64,000 nucleotides of DNA from Escherichia coli (lineage in GTDB: Bacteria > Pseudomonadota > Gammaproteobacteria > Enterobacterales > Enterobacteriaceae): NCBI RefSeq assembly GCF_045037415.1, contig NZ_CP173438.1; one strand, written 5' to 3'. Positions 44,998-50,560 of this stretch are shown here, in pieces; the stretch's first letter is position 1, and each line of letters starts with the position of its first letter. Below the pieces are notes generated by a model. The model saw nothing but the letters and a program-made list of their open reading frames with translations. It was not told the DNA's origin and did not search any database. The position numbers and the translations under genes are program-made.

Positions 44998-45073
44998 TGG
45001 TGGGTCGTGCAGGATTCGAACCTGCGACCAATTGATTAAAAGTCAACTGCTCTACCAACTGAGCTAACGACCC
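44998..45073 (-). tRNA. lysV: tRNA-Lys (anticodon UUU)
   Basis: Reverse complement matches the canonical E. coli tRNA-Lys sequence (GGGTCGTTAGCTCAGTTGGTAGAGCAG...CCA). Confidence 0.95.
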
Positions 45074-45077
45074 GAAG

Positions 45078-45153
45078 TGGTGGGTGATGACGGGATCGAA
45101 CCGCCGACCCCCTCCTTGTAAGGGAGGTGCTCTCCCAGCTGAGCTAATCACCC
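45078..45153 (-). tRNA. tRNA-Val (anticodon UAC)
   Basis: Reverse complement matches canonical tRNA-Val(UAC) (GGGTGATTAGCTCAGCTGGGAGAGCACCTCCCTTACAAGGAGG...). Confidence 0.95.
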
Positions 45154-45199
45154 ACTTCGGTACTTCACATTGTTACAAGAAATCTAGCTGGCGAGAAAG

Positions 45200-45275
45200 T
45201 GGTGGGTGATGACGGGATCGAACCGCCGACCCCCTCCTTGTAAGGGAGGTGCTCTCCCAGCTGAGCTAATCACCC
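45200..45275 (-). tRNA. tRNA-Val (anticodon UAC), second identical copy
   Basis: Identical to the copy at 45078..45153. Confidence 0.95.
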
Positions 45276-45533: not shown

Positions 45534-46949
45534 ATGAAAATCAAAACTCGCTTCGCGCCAAGCCCAACAGGCTATCTGCACGTTGGCGGCGCGCGTACTG
45601 CTCTTTACTCCTGGCTTTTTGCACGTAACCACGGCGGTGAGTTCGTGCTGCGTATTGAAGACACCGATCTTGAGCGTTCCACGCCGGAAGCTATCGAAGC
45701 CATTATGGATGGCATGAACTGGCTGAGCCTGGAGTGGGATGAAGGTCCGTACTACCAGACCAAACGTTTTGATCGCTACAACGCGGTGATCGATCAGATG
45801 CTGGAAGAGGGCACAGCTTATAAATGCTATTGCTCTAAAGAGCGCCTGGAAGCGCTGCGCGAAGAGCAAATGGCGAAAGGTGAGAAGCCGCGTTATGACG
45901 GTCGCTGCCGCCACAGTCATGAGCATCACGCTGATGATGAGCCGTGTGTCGTACGTTTTGCTAACCCGCAGGAAGGTTCTGTTGTTTTTGACGATCAGAT
46001 CCGTGGTCCGATCGAGTTCAGCAACCAGGAGCTGGATGATCTGATTATCCGCCGTACCGATGGTTCCCCAACCTATAACTTCTGTGTGGTTGTCGATGAC
46101 TGGGATATGGAAATCACCCACGTTATCCGTGGCGAAGACCATATCAACAACACACCGCGCCAGATTAACATTCTTAAGGCTCTGAAAGCGCCGGTACCGG
46201 TTTATGCGCACGTTTCTATGATCAACGGCGATGACGGTAAAAAACTGTCCAAACGTCACGGGGCGGTCAGCGTAATGCAGTATCGTGATGATGGTTATCT
46301 GCCAGAAGCACTGCTGAACTATCTGGTGCGTCTGGGCTGGTCCCACGGCGATCAGGAAATCTTCACTCGTGAAGAGATGATTAAATACTTCACTCTGAAT
46401 GCCGTCAGCAAATCTGCCAGTGCGTTCAACACCGACAAGCTGCTGTGGCTGAACCATCACTACATTAACGCGTTGCCGCCGGAGTATGTTGCTACTCACT
46501 TACAGTGGCACATTGAGCAGGAAAATATCGATACCCGTAACGGCCCGCAGCTGGCTGATCTGGTGAAACTGTTGGGCGAACGCTGCAAGACGCTGAAAGA
46601 GATGGCACAGAGCTGCCGTTATTTCTACGAAGATTTTGCTGAGTTCGATGCCGACGCCGCGAAAAAACATCTGCGTCCGGTAGCGCGCCAGCCGCTGGAA
46701 GTGGTTCGTGACAAACTGACTGCGATTACTGACTGGACCGCTGAAAACGTTCATCACGCTATTCAGGCGACGGCGGATGAGCTGGAAGTGGGTATGGGTA
46801 AAGTTGGTATGCCGCTGCGTGTCGCCGTAACCGGTGCGGGGCAGTCTCCGGCGCTGGATGTTACCGTTCACGCAATCGGTAAGACCCGCAGTATCGAGCG
46901 TATCAACAAAGCGCTGGCTTTTATTGCTGAACGCGAAAATCAGCAGTAA
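45534..46949 (+). CDS. gltX: glutamyl-tRNA synthetase
   Basis: 471 aa; class I HIGH motif ([12 protein letters not shown]) and KMSKS-like KLSKR. Confidence 0.95.
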
Positions 46950-46966
46950 TTAGCGCATAAAAGATA

Positions 46967-46998
46967 AACGGCAGGAGAGATACCCCTGCCGTTTTTTA
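46967..46998. terminator. bidirectional intrinsic terminator between gltX and yfeD
   Basis: ggcagg...cctgcc hairpin followed by TTTTTT. Confidence 0.7.
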
Positions 46999-46999
46999 T

Positions 47000-47392
47000 T
47001 TATGCTGATTCATCTATGTCGAGACGAGCAAGAAAATTACGAATTCCTTCGCGTGACAAAAATTGCGCAACTTTTTCTTGCTCACTGTGAGTCATGTTGT
47101 CTATTGCGCTGATGATTTGCCGATAAGCAGGAGTGCGAATACCCGGTGCGTATTCGGCAAGGGGTTCTTCGGCTTCCAGAAGCATCGGTGTGTTATGGAA
47201 GGCTGGCGTGTTCTGAATAAACTCGCAAACTTGCGTATCGACCAGAATAAGTCTGGCACGACCGCCTTTCACGCCGGGAAATTTTTCCGTTTTCCAGCCT
47301 TTTTCTCTGATCCAACGGTTAACAGTTTGTTTAGCCACACCGAGGCATTCAGCCAGTTCTTCGGTGGTCATTTTATTGCGTAATCTTTTCAT
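47000..47392 (-). CDS. yfeD: putative DNA-binding protein YfeD (HTH, DUF1323 family)
   Basis: 130 aa; N-terminal HTH-like region paralogous to the adjacent ORF; symbol by synteny next to gltX. Confidence 0.75.
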   Translation of the reverse strand: MKRLRNKMTTEELAECLGVAKQTVNRWIREKGWKTEKFPGVKGGRARLILVDTQVCEFIQNTPAFHNTPMLLEAEEPLAEYAPGIRTPAYRQIISAIDNMTHSEQEKVAQFLSREGIRNFLARLDIDESA

Positions 47393-47393
47393 A

Positions 47394-47738
47394 TTATTTG
47401 CTATCGCGAATCCCTAAGCGTTGTAACAATCCGATAATCCCTTCCCGCAGAAGCAAGGATGTAAACTGTTTTTGTTCAACTGGCGTCATCTCTTTCGCCA
47501 GTGTCACCAGCAACACTTCAAGCGGCGCATCACCAGAAAGGGCTGGCGCTTCTCCCTGACCTTCTGGACGTTCAGCATTGCGAATATATTCACGAACCTG
47601 TTCATTGACGTGAACCAGTCGAGCCTTGCCACCCTGGACGCCTGGTTTTGGTGACGTTGTCCAGCCTTCCTTGCGTACCCATTTATTAATGGTCTGGCGG
47701 CTATAGCCGGTCAGTCTGGCAAGTTCATCTGGCGTCAT
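47394..47738 (-). CDS. yfeC: putative DNA-binding protein YfeC (HTH, DUF1323 family)
   Basis: About 114 aa from internal ATG (MTPDELARLTGYSRQTINKWVRKEGW...); ORF-track start at 47753 is an alternative. Confidence 0.75.
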   Translation of the reverse strand: MTPDELARLTGYSRQTINKWVRKEGWTTSPKPGVQGGKARLVHVNEQVREYIRNAERPEGQGEAPALSGDAPLEVLLVTLAKEMTPVEQKQFTSLLLREGIIGLLQRLGIRDSK

Positions 47739-47973
47739 CCTCTCCTTGAACATAACAATTCCCTGAATGTATGTGGGTCTATTAGTAGTTCATTTTATAA
47801 CACCACTTTACAGGAAACCGTGACATGAATAACTACTGAATGCGAGCGGTTTTCCAAAATTGTTCATTTGCCTGATTTTTCAGCGATTGAAACTACACGT
47901 GGCAATTTGCCGTTGACACATTCGGGCGGAATTCATATGATGCCGCCCGTCAACTCGACAAGCTTTACGTGAT

Positions 47974-48049
<76 letters not shown>

Positions 48050-48088: not shown

Positions 48089-48164
<76 letters not shown>

Positions 48165-48171
48165 AATTTCA

Positions 48172-48199
48172 AACCCTCGCTGCAAAGCGGGGGTTTTTT
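48172..48199 (+). terminator. intrinsic terminator after the tRNA-Ala pair
   Basis: ccctcgc..gcggggg imperfect hairpin followed by TTTTTT. Confidence 0.5.
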
Positions 48200-48370
48200 G
48201 TCTCTGCCTTTTGCCGCTTTTGTAATACAGTCTACATCCTGGCAGTGCCGTGTGGTGAATGCATCACTGACTGCAAAAACAGCAACAGGCTGGCCCCTGT
48301 TTGCTTCGCGATGCGAATAAACTTATTATTTGTGTGCCTGAAAACCCCGATCAGTGAGAGTAGTGTACTC

Positions 48371-50560
48371 ATGTTTGTGGAGCATAACCTGATAAAAAAT
48401 ATCAAGATATTCACACTAGCGTTTACGCTCACCGTGGTACTTATTCAGCTATCCCGTTTAATTTCGCCACTTGCTGTTATCCATTCCAATTATATCTTTC
48501 TGGCGTGGATGCCACTGTGCGTAATGCTGTCAATCTTGTTTATCTTTGGCTGGCGTGGTGTCGTTCCCATTTTATGTGGGATGTTTTGCACCAATCTGTG
48601 GAACCTTCATCTCACTTTTTTACAGACCGCCGTCATGATCGGCAGCCAGGCGTTTGCAGTCCTGTGTGCCTGTGCAATATTACGCTGGCAATTGGGGACG
48701 CGTTGGCGTTATGGATTGACCAGCCGATACGTCTGGCAACGTCTGTTCTGGCTTGGTTTGGTGGCGCCGATTGGCATCAAATGCAGCATGTATCTTGTGG
48801 GAAATTTCTTTGATTTTCCGCTAAAGATATCTACCTTTTTCGGCGATGCGGATGCCATTTTCACGGTCGTTGATTTGCTAAGCCTTTTCACCGCAGTGCT
48901 GATTTACAACATGCTTTTTTACTATCTCACCCGCATGATTGTAAGTCCCCACTTTGCACAGATATTGTGGCGTAGGGATATCGCTCCGTCGTTGAGCAAA
49001 GAGAAACGCGCATTTACCTTAAGCTGGCTGGCAGCTCTTAGCGTGCTGCTACTTCTGATGTGCACACCGTATGAAAATGACTTTATTGCCGGTTACTTGG
49101 TACCTGTTTTCTTTATCATCTTTACCCTCGGTGTCGGTAAGCTTCGCTATCCGTTTTTAAATCTCACCTGGGCTGTTTCAACGCTTTGCCTGCTGAATTA
49201 CAACCAGAACTTTTTGCAAGGGGTACTAACCGAATATTCGCTGGCATTTATTCTCGCAGTACTGATTTCCTTTAGTGTTTGTCTGCTCTATATGGTGCGT
49301 ATTTATCATCGTAGTGAATGGCTTAACCGCCGCTGGCATTTGCAGGCGCTGACCGATCCGTTAACGCTCCTACCCAACTTTCGTGCGTTGGAACAAGCAC
49401 CGGAGCAAGAGGCGGGCAAGAGTTTTTGCTGCCTGCGCATTGATAATCTTGAGTTTATGAGTCGTCATTACGGCTTAATGATGCGCGTTCACTGTATCCG
49501 CTCAATTTACCGTACGTTGCTGCCGTTGATGCAGGAAAACGAAAAGTTGTATCAATTGCCGGGTAGTGAACTGCTGTTAGTGCTGAGCGGGCCGGAAACG
49601 GAAGGGCGACTCCAGCATATGGTTAACATCCTGAATAGTCGGCAAATTCACTGGAACAATACCGGGCTGGATATGGGCTATGGTGCTGCCTGGGGGCATT
49701 TTGATGGAAATCAGGAAACCCTGCAACCCTTGTTGGGGCAGTTAAGCTGGCTGGCAGAGCAATCCTGCGCACATCATCATGTGCTGGCGCTGGATAGCAG
49801 AGAGGAGATGGTTTCCGGGCAAACCACTAAACAGGTGCTATTGCTGAATACCATTCGCACGGCGTTAGATCAGGGTGATTTGCTGCTCTACGCCCAGCCA
49901 ATTCGCAACAAAGAGGGTGAAGGTTATGATGAGATCCTCGCGCGACTGAAGTATGACGGCGGCATTATGACCCCGGATAAGTTTCTGCCCCTTATTGCTC
50001 AGTTTAACCTTAGCGCGCGTTTTGATTTGCAAGTGCTGGAATCCTTGTTGAAGTGGCTGGCAACACACCCTTGCGACAAAAAAGGTCCACGATTTTCAGT
50101 CAATTTAATGCCGCTCACGCTGCTGCAAAAGAATATTGCCGGGCGGATTATTCGTCTGTTTAAGCGTTATTACATCTCCCCGCAGGCGGTCATTCTTGAG
50201 ATCACCGAGGAGCAGGCGTTTTCTAACGCAGAAAGCAGCATGTACAACATCGAGCAGCTGCATAAGTTTGGTTTCCGGATTGCGATTGATGACTTTGGCA
50301 CCGGATATGCCAACTACGAACGGTTAAAGCGTTTGCAGGCTGATATCATCAAAATTGATGGCGTCTTTGTGAAAGATATCGTCACGAACACGCTGGATGC
50401 GATGATTGTGAGATCAATTACCGATCTGGCGAAAGCGAAGTCATTGAGTGTGGTCGCGGAGTTTGTCGAGACGCAACAGCAGCAGGCGCTATTGCATAAG
50501 CTCGGGGTGCAATATCTGCAAGGGTATTTGATTGGTCGCCCGCAGCCATTAGCCGATTAA
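48371..50560 (+). CDS. pdeA: c-di-GMP phosphodiesterase PdeA (YfeA): MASE-type membrane domain, degenerate GGDEF, EAL
   Basis: 729 aa from internal ATG (MFVEHNLIKN...); EAL motifs in C-terminal third; the ORF-track N-terminal extension (TTG at 48116) runs through tRNA-Ala and is rejected. Confidence 0.85.
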   Translation: MFVEHNLIKNIKIFTLAFTLTVVLIQLSRLISPLAVIHSNYIFLAWMPLCVMLSILFIFGWRGVVPILCGMFCTNLWNLHLTFLQTAVMIGSQAFAVLCACAILRWQLGTRWRYGLTSRYVWQRLFWLGLVAPIGIKCSMYLVGNFFDFPLKISTFFGDADAIFTVVDLLSLFTAVLIYNMLFYYLTRMIVSPHFAQILWRRDIAPSLSKEKRAFTLSWLAALSVLLLLMCTPYENDFIAGYLVPVFFIIFTLGVGKLRYPFLNLTWAVSTLCLLNYNQNFLQGVLTEYSLAFILAVLISFSVCLLYMVRIYHRSEWLNRRWHLQALTDPLTLLPNFRALEQAPEQEAGKSFCCLRIDNLEFMSRHYGLMMRVHCIRSIYRTLLPLMQENEKLYQLPGSELLLVLSGPETEGRLQHMVNILNSRQIHWNNTGLDMGYGAAWGHFDGNQETLQPLLGQLSWLAEQSCAHHHVLALDSREEMVSGQTTKQVLLLNTIRTALDQGDLLLYAQPIRNKEGEGYDEILARLKYDGGIMTPDKFLPLIAQFNLSARFDLQVLESLLKWLATHPCDKKGPRFSVNLMPLTLLQKNIAGRIIRLFKRYYISPQAVILEITEEQAFSNAESSMYNIEQLHKFGFRIAIDDFGTGYANYERLKRLQADIIKIDGVFVKDIVTNTLDAMIVRSITDLAKAKSLSVVAEFVETQQQQALLHKLGVQYLQGYLIGRPQPLAD

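Follow-up and report, generated by a model that had tools for sequence, protein, structure and literature searches.

The yfeC-yfeD locus of Escherichia coli: a probable old operon of paralogous winged-helix regulators related to the phage Mu repressor

Two small genes lie side by side on the minus strand between gltX and two tRNA-Ala genes in a 64,000-nucleotide stretch (the window) of the Escherichia coli contig NZ_CP173438.1 (NCBI RefSeq assembly GCF_045037415.1). A preliminary description, made from the sequence alone, took them for a tandem duplication encoding two DNA-binding proteins with a helix-turn-helix (HTH), YfeC and YfeD. The questions raised by this locus are what kind of regulators the two genes encode, whether these act together or separately, and why they stand beside a synthetase gene and tRNA genes. 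The reading favoured here, with a probability of roughly 0.75, is that of an old two-gene operon encoding paralogous winged-helix regulators of the Mu repressor type, which form dimers by way of a C-terminal hairpin and whose targets have come to differ. The pair and the genes that flank it are the following:

45534 to 46949, plus strand: gltX, flanking the pair on the yfeD side and convergent with it
47000 to 47392, minus strand: yfeD coding sequence, 130 amino acids, the downstream and faster-evolving paralogue
47390 to 47396, minus strand: junction of the yfeC stop and the yfeD start, TAA-T-ATG as read from the sequence, a likely site of translational coupling
47394 to 47753, minus strand: yfeC coding sequence, 119 amino acids from the ATG at 47753 (114 amino acids from the ATG at 47738 in the K-12 annotation)
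47974 to 48049 and 48089 to 48164, plus strand: two tRNA-Ala(GGC) genes, flanking the pair on the other side

The list of open reading frames and the sequence agree with the preliminary description in the position of both genes and in the single nucleotide, 47393, that separates the yfeC stop from the yfeD ATG (...AAA TAA T ATG AAA... on the minus strand), and gltX and the tRNA-Ala genes are on the two sides where it placed them. In the K-12 annotation the upstream gene (47394-47753) is yfeC (b2398) and the downstream gene (47000-47392) is yfeD (b2399); orthology is seen both in the sequence, with 100% protein identity for YfeC and 93.8% for YfeD, and in the position, with the same neighbours. 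The K-12 RefSeq name for YfeC is 'DNA-binding transcriptional dual regulator'. The locus is present, annotated as yfeC and yfeD, in 5425 of 5426 complete E. coli genomes, and several E. coli chromosomes match the 1.1-kb region with 100% identity. These are known and ordinary genes, whose paralogy, family and DNA-binding role are already in the databases. In an alignment of the spacer between tRNA-Ala and yfeC from 17 genera, both candidate ATGs of yfeC are invariant and codons 4-5 vary as GAG AGG, GAA CGG or GAA CGA, always Glu-Arg; a conserved AGGRAA lies upstream of the first ATG. Because codons 4-5 change synonymously, the 119-amino-acid form is favoured over the 114-amino-acid form of K-12 and is probably the true product.

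YfeC and YfeD are paralogues over their whole length. BLASTP, the pairwise check proposed in the preliminary description, aligns them over 128 columns with 36% identity and 54% positives (E=6e-27), the peptide stretches quoted there as shared are found in both proteins, and both match the family PF07037 (YfeC-like, formerly DUF1323) from end to end (profile 1-122 of 122) above its gathering score of 22.9 bits: YfeD with 206.1 bits (E=2e-61) and YfeC with 173.0 bits (E=3.6e-51). YfeD also shows 31.3 bits to PF12728 (HTH_17, cutoff 27) and 27.5 bits to TIGR01764 (cutoff 28.8); YfeC is below both cutoffs. The family is very small, with about 200 of 1.84 billion representative proteins matching the profile at E<=0.001, about 30 of them full length. 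Another group of proteins (P0296, P0298, P0310, P0325 and others), 300-1300 amino acids long, has 4-14 tandem repeats, whose match is limited to the HTH segment of YfeC type (profile about 2-40).

At the level of sequence profiles, the YfeC-like family is homologous to the N-terminal two thirds of the repressor c of phage Mu. A family profile of 64 sequences, searched against the solved structures of the PDB, retrieves the I-alpha domain of the MuA transposase (1TNS; E=2.2e-7, residues 3-51) and the Mu repressor domain (1G4D/1QPM; E=1.6e-4). A profile was required, since YfeD alone against PDB chains gave only chance pannexin matches. Aligned by hhalign with the full-length Mu repressor c (from AF083977), the family matches with a probability of 94.9% and E=4.6e-8, YfeC residues 5-109 corresponding to Mu c 16-132; the match spans the winged HTH and the next helical segment (YfeC MTPVEQKQFTSLLLREGIIGL and Mu c LEPDEARKALKLLSKGGLLAL). 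In the reverse test, Mu c passes the gathering score of PF07037 with 23.1 bits over residues 42-132. Mu c is a strong member of phrog_7148, which YfeC and YfeD match weakly over residues of about 20-121, and natural proteins that bridge the two families (P0361, P0370, P0287) pass both PF02316 and PF07037. No paper was found that links YfeC or YfeD to the Mu repressor, and one paper terms yfeD 'MerR-like'; the UniRef label of a Salmonella orthologue reads 'HTH Mu-type domain-containing', so the link is implicit in databases.

The Mu repressor c (Repc, 196 amino acids; 1QPM, 1G4D; PF02316; phrog_7148) shares with YfeC the order of a winged HTH with a GVKGGKA wing, a linker and a leucine-rich helical segment, and both are repressors, as published for YfeC. 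The Mu-type winged-helix fold with this wing is found in YfeC and YfeD. The remainder of the Mu architecture is not: with 119 and 130 amino acids they are shorter than the 196 or so of Mu c, the alignment stops at Mu c 132, and about 60 C-terminal residues are absent, which in Mu c hold further oligomerisation determinants and a ClpXP-sensitive tail. Nor is the context that of the left end of a Mu prophage with ner and transposase alongside, since yfeC and yfeD are core chromosomal genes in a fixed context in 80 species. The TTCCGGAA-like motif reported for YfeC differs from the operator consensus of Mu. The MuA I-alpha domain (1TNS/1TNT), the best solved sequence relative of the family profile, has the wing motif in common; it is part of a 663-amino-acid transposase and binds the Mu enhancer, whereas YfeC and YfeD have neither catalytic nor other transposase domains. 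The minimal MerR-like and excisionase-like winged-helix proteins BldC of Streptomyces (6AMA/6AMK), Pukovnik Xis (4J2N), pSK1 Par (8CSH), RacA (5I41) and TorI (1Z4H) show only 10-21% identity and have no C-terminal hairpin of the YfeC type; neither recombination, the process in which Xis and TorI work, nor the head-to-tail binding of BldC is known for YfeC or YfeD. MerR regulators, the name given to YfeD by PGAP, have in common with the pair the N-terminal winged HTH, the broad superfamily and, likely, dimeric DNA binding. However, the MerR_1 profile (PF13411) scores only 12.3 and 12.6 bits against a cutoff of 21.6, and YfeC has a disordered linker and a short helical hairpin where MerR regulators have a long antiparallel coiled coil immediately behind the HTH, and it lacks an effector-binding domain. 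Each protein is a shortened chromosomal relative of the Mu repressor c, made of a winged HTH with a GV(K/Q)GG(K/R)A wing, a linker and a hairpin. These parts are located as follows:

47577 to 47741, minus strand: Mu-type winged HTH region of YfeC, residues 5-59, including the wing PGVQGGKA
47418 to 47522, minus strand: C-terminal helical hairpin region of YfeC, residues 78-112, the proposed dimerisation module
47210 to 47374, minus strand: winged HTH region of YfeD, residues 7-61, wing PGVKGGRA, from the alignment with YfeC and the HTH_17 match of 31.3 bits
47024 to 47131, minus strand: C-terminal helical hairpin region of YfeD, residues 88-123, from the AlphaFold2 model of fused hairpins

The AlphaFold2 model of YfeC, built on the family alignment (mean predicted local distance difference test, pLDDT, 79), shows in residues 5-59 a short strand, two helices, a beta-hairpin wing and a third helix, then a disordered linker (60-77) and a hairpin of two helices (78-88 and 91-112; pLDDT about 90). 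This hairpin corresponds in the hhalign alignment to Mu repressor residues of about 95-132, and L101, R103, G105, L110, R112 and L113 are near-invariant in it. An amphipathic hairpin of 35 residues is unlikely to be stable on its own. When the YfeC and YfeD hairpins were fused by a 24-residue Gly-Ser linker and modelled with a species-paired alignment, the predicted template modelling score (pTM) was 0.63 despite the disordered linker, and the helices, at 76-86 and 90-111 of the model (YfeD 88-98 and 102-123), had a pLDDT of 85-89. This model is taken to show the hairpins of YfeC and YfeD packing into one bundle, and hetero-association is plausible. Two C-terminal hairpins would pair into a helical bundle and so form a dimer able to read inverted repeats.

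The synteny survey (tblastn for yfeC, yfeD, gltX and pdeA, with a survey of tRNAs) covers the best 80 loci out of 309 relative-encoding stretches in 100,044 species genomes. All 80 belong to Enterobacteriaceae, and in every one a second paralogue lies directly downstream of yfeC, with a gap of exactly 1 nt in 46 and a range from -20 to +22 nt. The usual order is pdeA, tRNA-Ala, yfeC and yfeD, with gltX following on the opposite strand: tRNA-Ala is upstream wherever the flank is long enough, a pdeA-like gene is upstream in most of the loci, and the adjacency of gltX is lost in most Kosakonia loci and in a few truncated contigs. The placement beside a synthetase gene and tRNA genes, which had been called intriguing, is inherited synteny conserved in enterobacteria. 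Neighbour joining gives a tight YfeC clade and a long-branched YfeD clade, and 'distant' representatives such as P0248 and P0250 are fast-evolving second-position copies of other genera in an unchanged arrangement. A more distant relative (P0256) shows a single copy, convergent with gltX, then tRNA-Val and tRNA-Lys, which is consistent with the state before duplication. No phage homologues were found by tblastn against phages, the plasmid matches were mostly chromosomes mislabelled as plasmids, and the GC content is ordinary. Because of the fixed synteny, the single-copy relative, the lack of phage homologues and the ordinary GC content, yfeCD is regarded as an ancient, vertically inherited duplication fixed in the Enterobacteriaceae core genome. 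Enterobacter sp. BIGb0383 (L051:5001-6138) has three tandem YfeC-like genes before gltX, one yfeC and two of yfeD type, which shows the locus to be prone to tandem duplication even now. The second copy scores nearer YfeC than YfeD in Entomohabitans and in Atlantibacter (one record of which bears the title Citrobacter freundii M-21).

The targets of both proteins, given as uncharacterised in the preliminary description, are in fact published. Working with native-locus tags on both genes, Gao et al. (2021; PMC8464067) reported, by chromatin immunoprecipitation with exonuclease (ChIP-exo), 50 YfeC sites and 36 YfeD sites, together with RNA sequencing (RNA-seq) of a yfeC deletion; both are small proteins that bind DNA in vivo, as had been expected. 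The YfeC motif was described as TTC-rich inverted repeats, YfeC was mostly a repressor (16 of 20 direct targets), and an earlier report tied a yfeC mutant to extracellular DNA (PMC8464067). ChIP-exo signal came from each of the natively tagged proteins, and the mRNA of each gene was measured, which disposes of the possibility, raised beforehand, that only one of the genes is expressed. From 18 of the published sites, taken from the K-12 sequence, a Gibbs sampler recovers a palindrome of TTCC/GGAA type with instances at mukF (TTTCGGAAACTTCCGGAA), fdoG (ATTCCGGAAAC) and chaB-chaC (GTCCGGAAG); inspection of 10 ChIP sites by eye gave nothing convincing. According to the published ChIP-exo data, YfeC binds its roughly 50 sites through a TTCCGGAA-like palindrome and mostly represses, and YfeD binds about 36 different sites. 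The two lists share one position, ispB/rplU, which may be a generic hot spot because YciT also binds there. Since the site sets differ, YfeC and YfeD appear to be mainly separate regulators.

The large specific effects of the yfeC deletion are the loss of yfeC, a 20-fold increase of yfeD and a 36-fold decrease of ybaQ (Datasets S4 and S6). The ybaQ gene carries a YfeD ChIP-exo site with a signal-to-noise ratio (S/N) of 29.7; the simplest reading is that over-produced YfeD represses ybaQ, which is likely a direct YfeD target, and therefore part of the 'YfeC regulon' may be a YfeD effect. Many of the genes 'induced' in the deletion are very small (rpm and rps genes, small proteins), and lpp, fim, cusC, osmB and acrZ recur in an unrelated yciT knockout. 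Over-expression of yfeD and transcript-size bias have probably confounded the YfeC regulon as published. Among the ChIP targets there are several genes of cyclic di-GMP (c-di-GMP) and biofilm, dgcC/adrA (S/N 135), pdeN, bluF and fimH for YfeC and pdeG and bcsC for YfeD; the conserved neighbour pdeA encodes a MASE1-GGDEF-EAL protein, and these targets are suggestive given the extracellular-DNA phenotype.

The elements from which the expression of the pair can be read are three:

46966 to 46994, minus strand: intrinsic terminator hairpin after yfeD, with a 12-bp stem (7 G-C pairs) and a T-rich tail, the only one on this strand near the pair
47794 to 47802, minus strand: putative yfeCD promoter with an extended -10 (TGtTATAAA), placed by conservation
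47804 to 47820, minus strand: candidate operator, a conserved but imperfect palindrome directly next to the -10 (in E. coli CGGTTTCCTGTAAAGTG; family consensus C-n-n-TTTC-nnn-TAAAA-n-G)

The operon proposed in the preliminary description is supported by the 1-nt gap, which recurs in 46 of the 80 species loci, and by the minus-strand terminator scan near the pair, in which no terminator appears between yfeC and yfeD and one appears after yfeD. This terminator lies in the 50-nt spacer shared with the convergent gltX, and a T-run is also present on the plus strand after gltX. The two genes very probably form one operon: they would be transcribed together from the extended -10 promoter upstream of yfeC, their translation would be coupled through the 1-nt junction, and transcription would end at the hairpin shared with gltX. 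A generic promoter scan gave no sigma-70 match for yfeC, and the promoter was placed by conservation instead. The motif TG.TATAA is present in 79 of 80 upstream regions (the window and 79 species loci), with T, G and TATAA invariant in the 63 distinct sequences, and the core bases of the palindrome are likewise invariant across the 63 promoters. Within the palindrome, the pair (13,27) is complementary in 34 of 63 (A-T 16, G-C 15, C-G 3) against about 20 expected, and none of 10,000 shuffles reached 34, a result that overstates the significance of the covariation because the sequences are phylogenetically related.

In the published RNA-seq of the yfeC deletion, the increase of yfeD mRNA (adjusted p value 5e-133) is the most significant specific change; as a control, the gene downstream of yidZ increases only 2.4-fold in the yidZ knockout of the same study. 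Another control for polar effects, osmB in the yciT knockout, was dropped, since osmB is also up in the yfeC knockout (small-gene bias). The rise of yfeD, which also speaks for an operon, fits negative control of the operon by YfeC, which would hold down yfeD mRNA directly or indirectly.

Other elements are conserved in the spacer between yfeC and the tRNA-Ala genes. Reading of the sequences shows a perfect palindrome, TGCGAG-N4-CTCGCA, in Enterobacter, Leclercia and Yokenella, some 40-60 nt before the yfeC -10 (minus strand, window 47841-47859). In Salmonella, Citrobacter and Escherichia the palindrome is degenerate, and E. coli retains just the right arm (TGGAAAACCGCTCGCA). It may mark where another regulator binds, one that the Escherichia lineage has lost or altered. 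The block TTCAATCGCTGAAAAA(G/T)CAGGCAA (minus-strand reading, window 47868-47893) is conserved about 20-45 nt upstream of the alaW -35 (47913), and the alaW promoter itself is near-invariant (TTGACA and TATGAT, 17 nt apart, followed by a GC-rich discriminator). An operator role for the inverted repeat TTTCAgcgatTGAAA (about 47877-47893) was weighed and rejected, since its conserved part lies immediately upstream of the alaW promoter; the block probably serves this tRNA promoter as a UP or Fis element.

A number of points weigh against the reading of a YfeC-controlled operon of Mu-repressor-like dimers. The threshold of PF02316 (23.3 bits) is not reached by YfeC (14.6 bits, E=0.041) and YfeD is unlisted, so the relationship to Mu is profile-level homology and not membership of that family. 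The model of fused hairpins covers the YfeC-YfeD combination, and its packing is read from pTM and pLDDT. Dimerisation through the hairpin, co-transcription and translational coupling are inferred. The E. coli palindrome has four of six arm pairs complementary and is unlike the TTCCGGAA-type motif, and may belong to another factor. The site lists of Gao et al. report no ChIP-exo peak at the yfeC promoter (PMC8464067), and a crude position weight matrix (PWM), built from the other ChIP sites, shows no strong YfeC-type site there, its best rank being 86 of about 128,000 positions; with neither a peak nor a strong PWM site at the promoter, direct autorepression by YfeC is something we only infer. 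The rise of yfeD could also be read-through from a resistance cassette, since the scar is undescribed in the paper, and the noisy published RNA-seq suggests a transcript-size or batch bias.

The alternative that survives best, unlikely as it is, is that YfeC and YfeD form an obligate heterodimer and hence a single regulator, the coupled tandem genes providing equal amounts. Both copies are kept in all 80 species loci, most with the 1-nt junction, the residues of the C-terminal hairpin are conserved between the paralogues, and the fused hairpins are predicted to pack (pTM 0.63). On the other side, the ChIP-exo lists of 50 and 36 sites have only the YciT-bound ispB/rplU in common, one species has three YfeC-like copies, the two clades differ greatly in evolutionary rate, and ybaQ, a YfeD target, falls 36-fold where YfeC is missing and yfeD is over-expressed, which suggests that YfeD is active without YfeC. 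The heterodimerisation raised in the preliminary description is therefore retained as predicted packing of the hairpins, and its obligate form is argued against by the ybaQ data.

Rather improbable is the idea that YfeC and YfeD, as a domesticated and duplicated Mu-type repressor that became fixed in the core genome of the Enterobacteriaceae ancestor, not only regulate host genes but still read Mu-like operator or enhancer DNA, and could so modulate the lysogeny or transposition of Mu-like transposable phages. If the idea were true, the pair would provide a host-encoded quasi-immunity, and the fast-evolving, dimorphic YfeD would be the arm under phage-driven selection.

Still less probable is that the purpose of yfeCD is the control of adjacent genes, whether gltX, pdeA or the tRNA-Ala or tRNA-Val/Lys operons. 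The conserved order pdeA-alaXW-yfeCD-gltX and the c-di-GMP genes among the ChIP targets (dgcC, pdeN and bluF for YfeC; pdeG and bcsC for YfeD) are in its favour, as is one peak near the locus:

48142 to 48175, no strand assigned: equivalent of a YfeC ChIP-exo peak, on the alaX 3' end and the first part of the alaX terminator, roughly 200 bp upstream of pdeA

This is YfeC site 33 (NC_000913.2 2516052-2516085), mapped by an offset of +1978 and alignment; it is the only published YfeC peak near its own gene, and the PWM ranks 48158 (minus strand) 7th of 127,974 positions. With an S/N of 12.8 against 2057 at the top site the peak is weak, and since it falls on a tRNA gene, a kind of locus that is often hyper-ChIPable, it may be artefactual. 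In addition, gltX is non-adjacent in Kosakonia loci, pdeA is not differentially expressed in the published lists for the yfeC deletion, and a search of supplementary files (PMC8464067), the site lists and differential-expression tables among them, gave no occurrence of gltX, alaW, pdeA, yfeA or b2395.

There is very little to recommend the view that yfeCD serves a mobile element by the tRNA genes, as an excisionase or recombination directionality factor or as a prophage immunity repressor. The gene order is fixed in 80 species and the locus is in 5425 of 5426 E. coli genomes, the GC content is normal, tblastn found no phage homologue and the plasmid matches were mostly mislabelled chromosomes; no integrase or transposase turned up in the locus survey, the gene tables of a few relatives or the nearby open reading frames of the window, although no direct search was made. 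A mobile origin in the distant past is possible, and a present mobile function is not supported.

That yfeCD is a type II toxin-antitoxin module, as in its listing by RASTA-Bacteria in 2007 as a high-confidence new pair (PMC2374986) and as its two small adjacent genes, one with an HTH, could suggest, is scarcely credible, since both partners are paralogous HTH-plus-hairpin proteins that bind DNA in vivo, neither contains a toxin domain that would make one the toxin and the other its antitoxin, the one Pfam match with a toxin name (YdaS_toxin) scores far under its cutoff, and cells survive the deletion of yfeC. A defence role was also rejected, PADLOC giving only weak HTH-level similarity to MADS Mad1.

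The probable operon of two Mu-repressor-like paralogues shows a further feature in its second gene, which has two forms in E. coli:

47000 to 47188, minus strand: divergent-allele segment of yfeD, codons 69-130 and the stop, with the divergence running on into the downstream spacer

Compared with K-12 DNA, yfeD of the window is 100% identical in codons 1-68, 79% in codons 69-130 and 84% in the spacer beyond (46950-46999). In codons 69-130 there are 25 synonymous and eight non-synonymous codon differences, and the identity of the last 27 residues places the segment under purifying selection. The distribution is bimodal in 5426 E. coli records: 2241 are at least 95% identical to the window, 3183 are at 80-90% and two are between. 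The K-12-type segment is 97-98% identical to that of E. whittamii and two other lineages and is the common Escherichia type, and the window-type segment is 14-21% diverged from all Escherichia lineages tested, with E. albertii the closest (86%). With its sharp mid-gene breakpoint, the window-type 3' half has the look of an allele that was imported or is very old. Across window 48165-49203, identity to K-12 is 92% in the alaX-pdeA spacer and 94.5% in the 5' part of pdeA, with some 100-nt windows at 85-86%, and gltX and yfeC are about 98% identical; the divergence in the alaX-pdeA region means that the mosaic ancestry reaches beyond yfeD. On the other side of gltX, window 44998-45275 contains one tRNA-Lys and two tRNA-Val(UAC) genes; K-12 has three tRNA-Val genes (valU, valX, valY) and lysV at the same array, and other species loci have two to five Val copies, which is copy-number variation in a tandem tRNA array.

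The additions made here are modest and alter no major question in the field. New are the homology to the Mu repressor with the predicted pairing of the hairpins, the conserved extended -10 with its covarying palindrome, and the two alleles of the yfeD 3' half. The relationship to the Mu repressor would provide a structural model for DNA binding and dimerisation and corrects the loose 'MerR family' label. For the published transcriptome of the yfeC deletion, the 20-fold over-expression of yfeD is a warning of confounding. The dimorphic 3' half of yfeD may be used for studying recombination and selection at the dimerisation region of a regulator.

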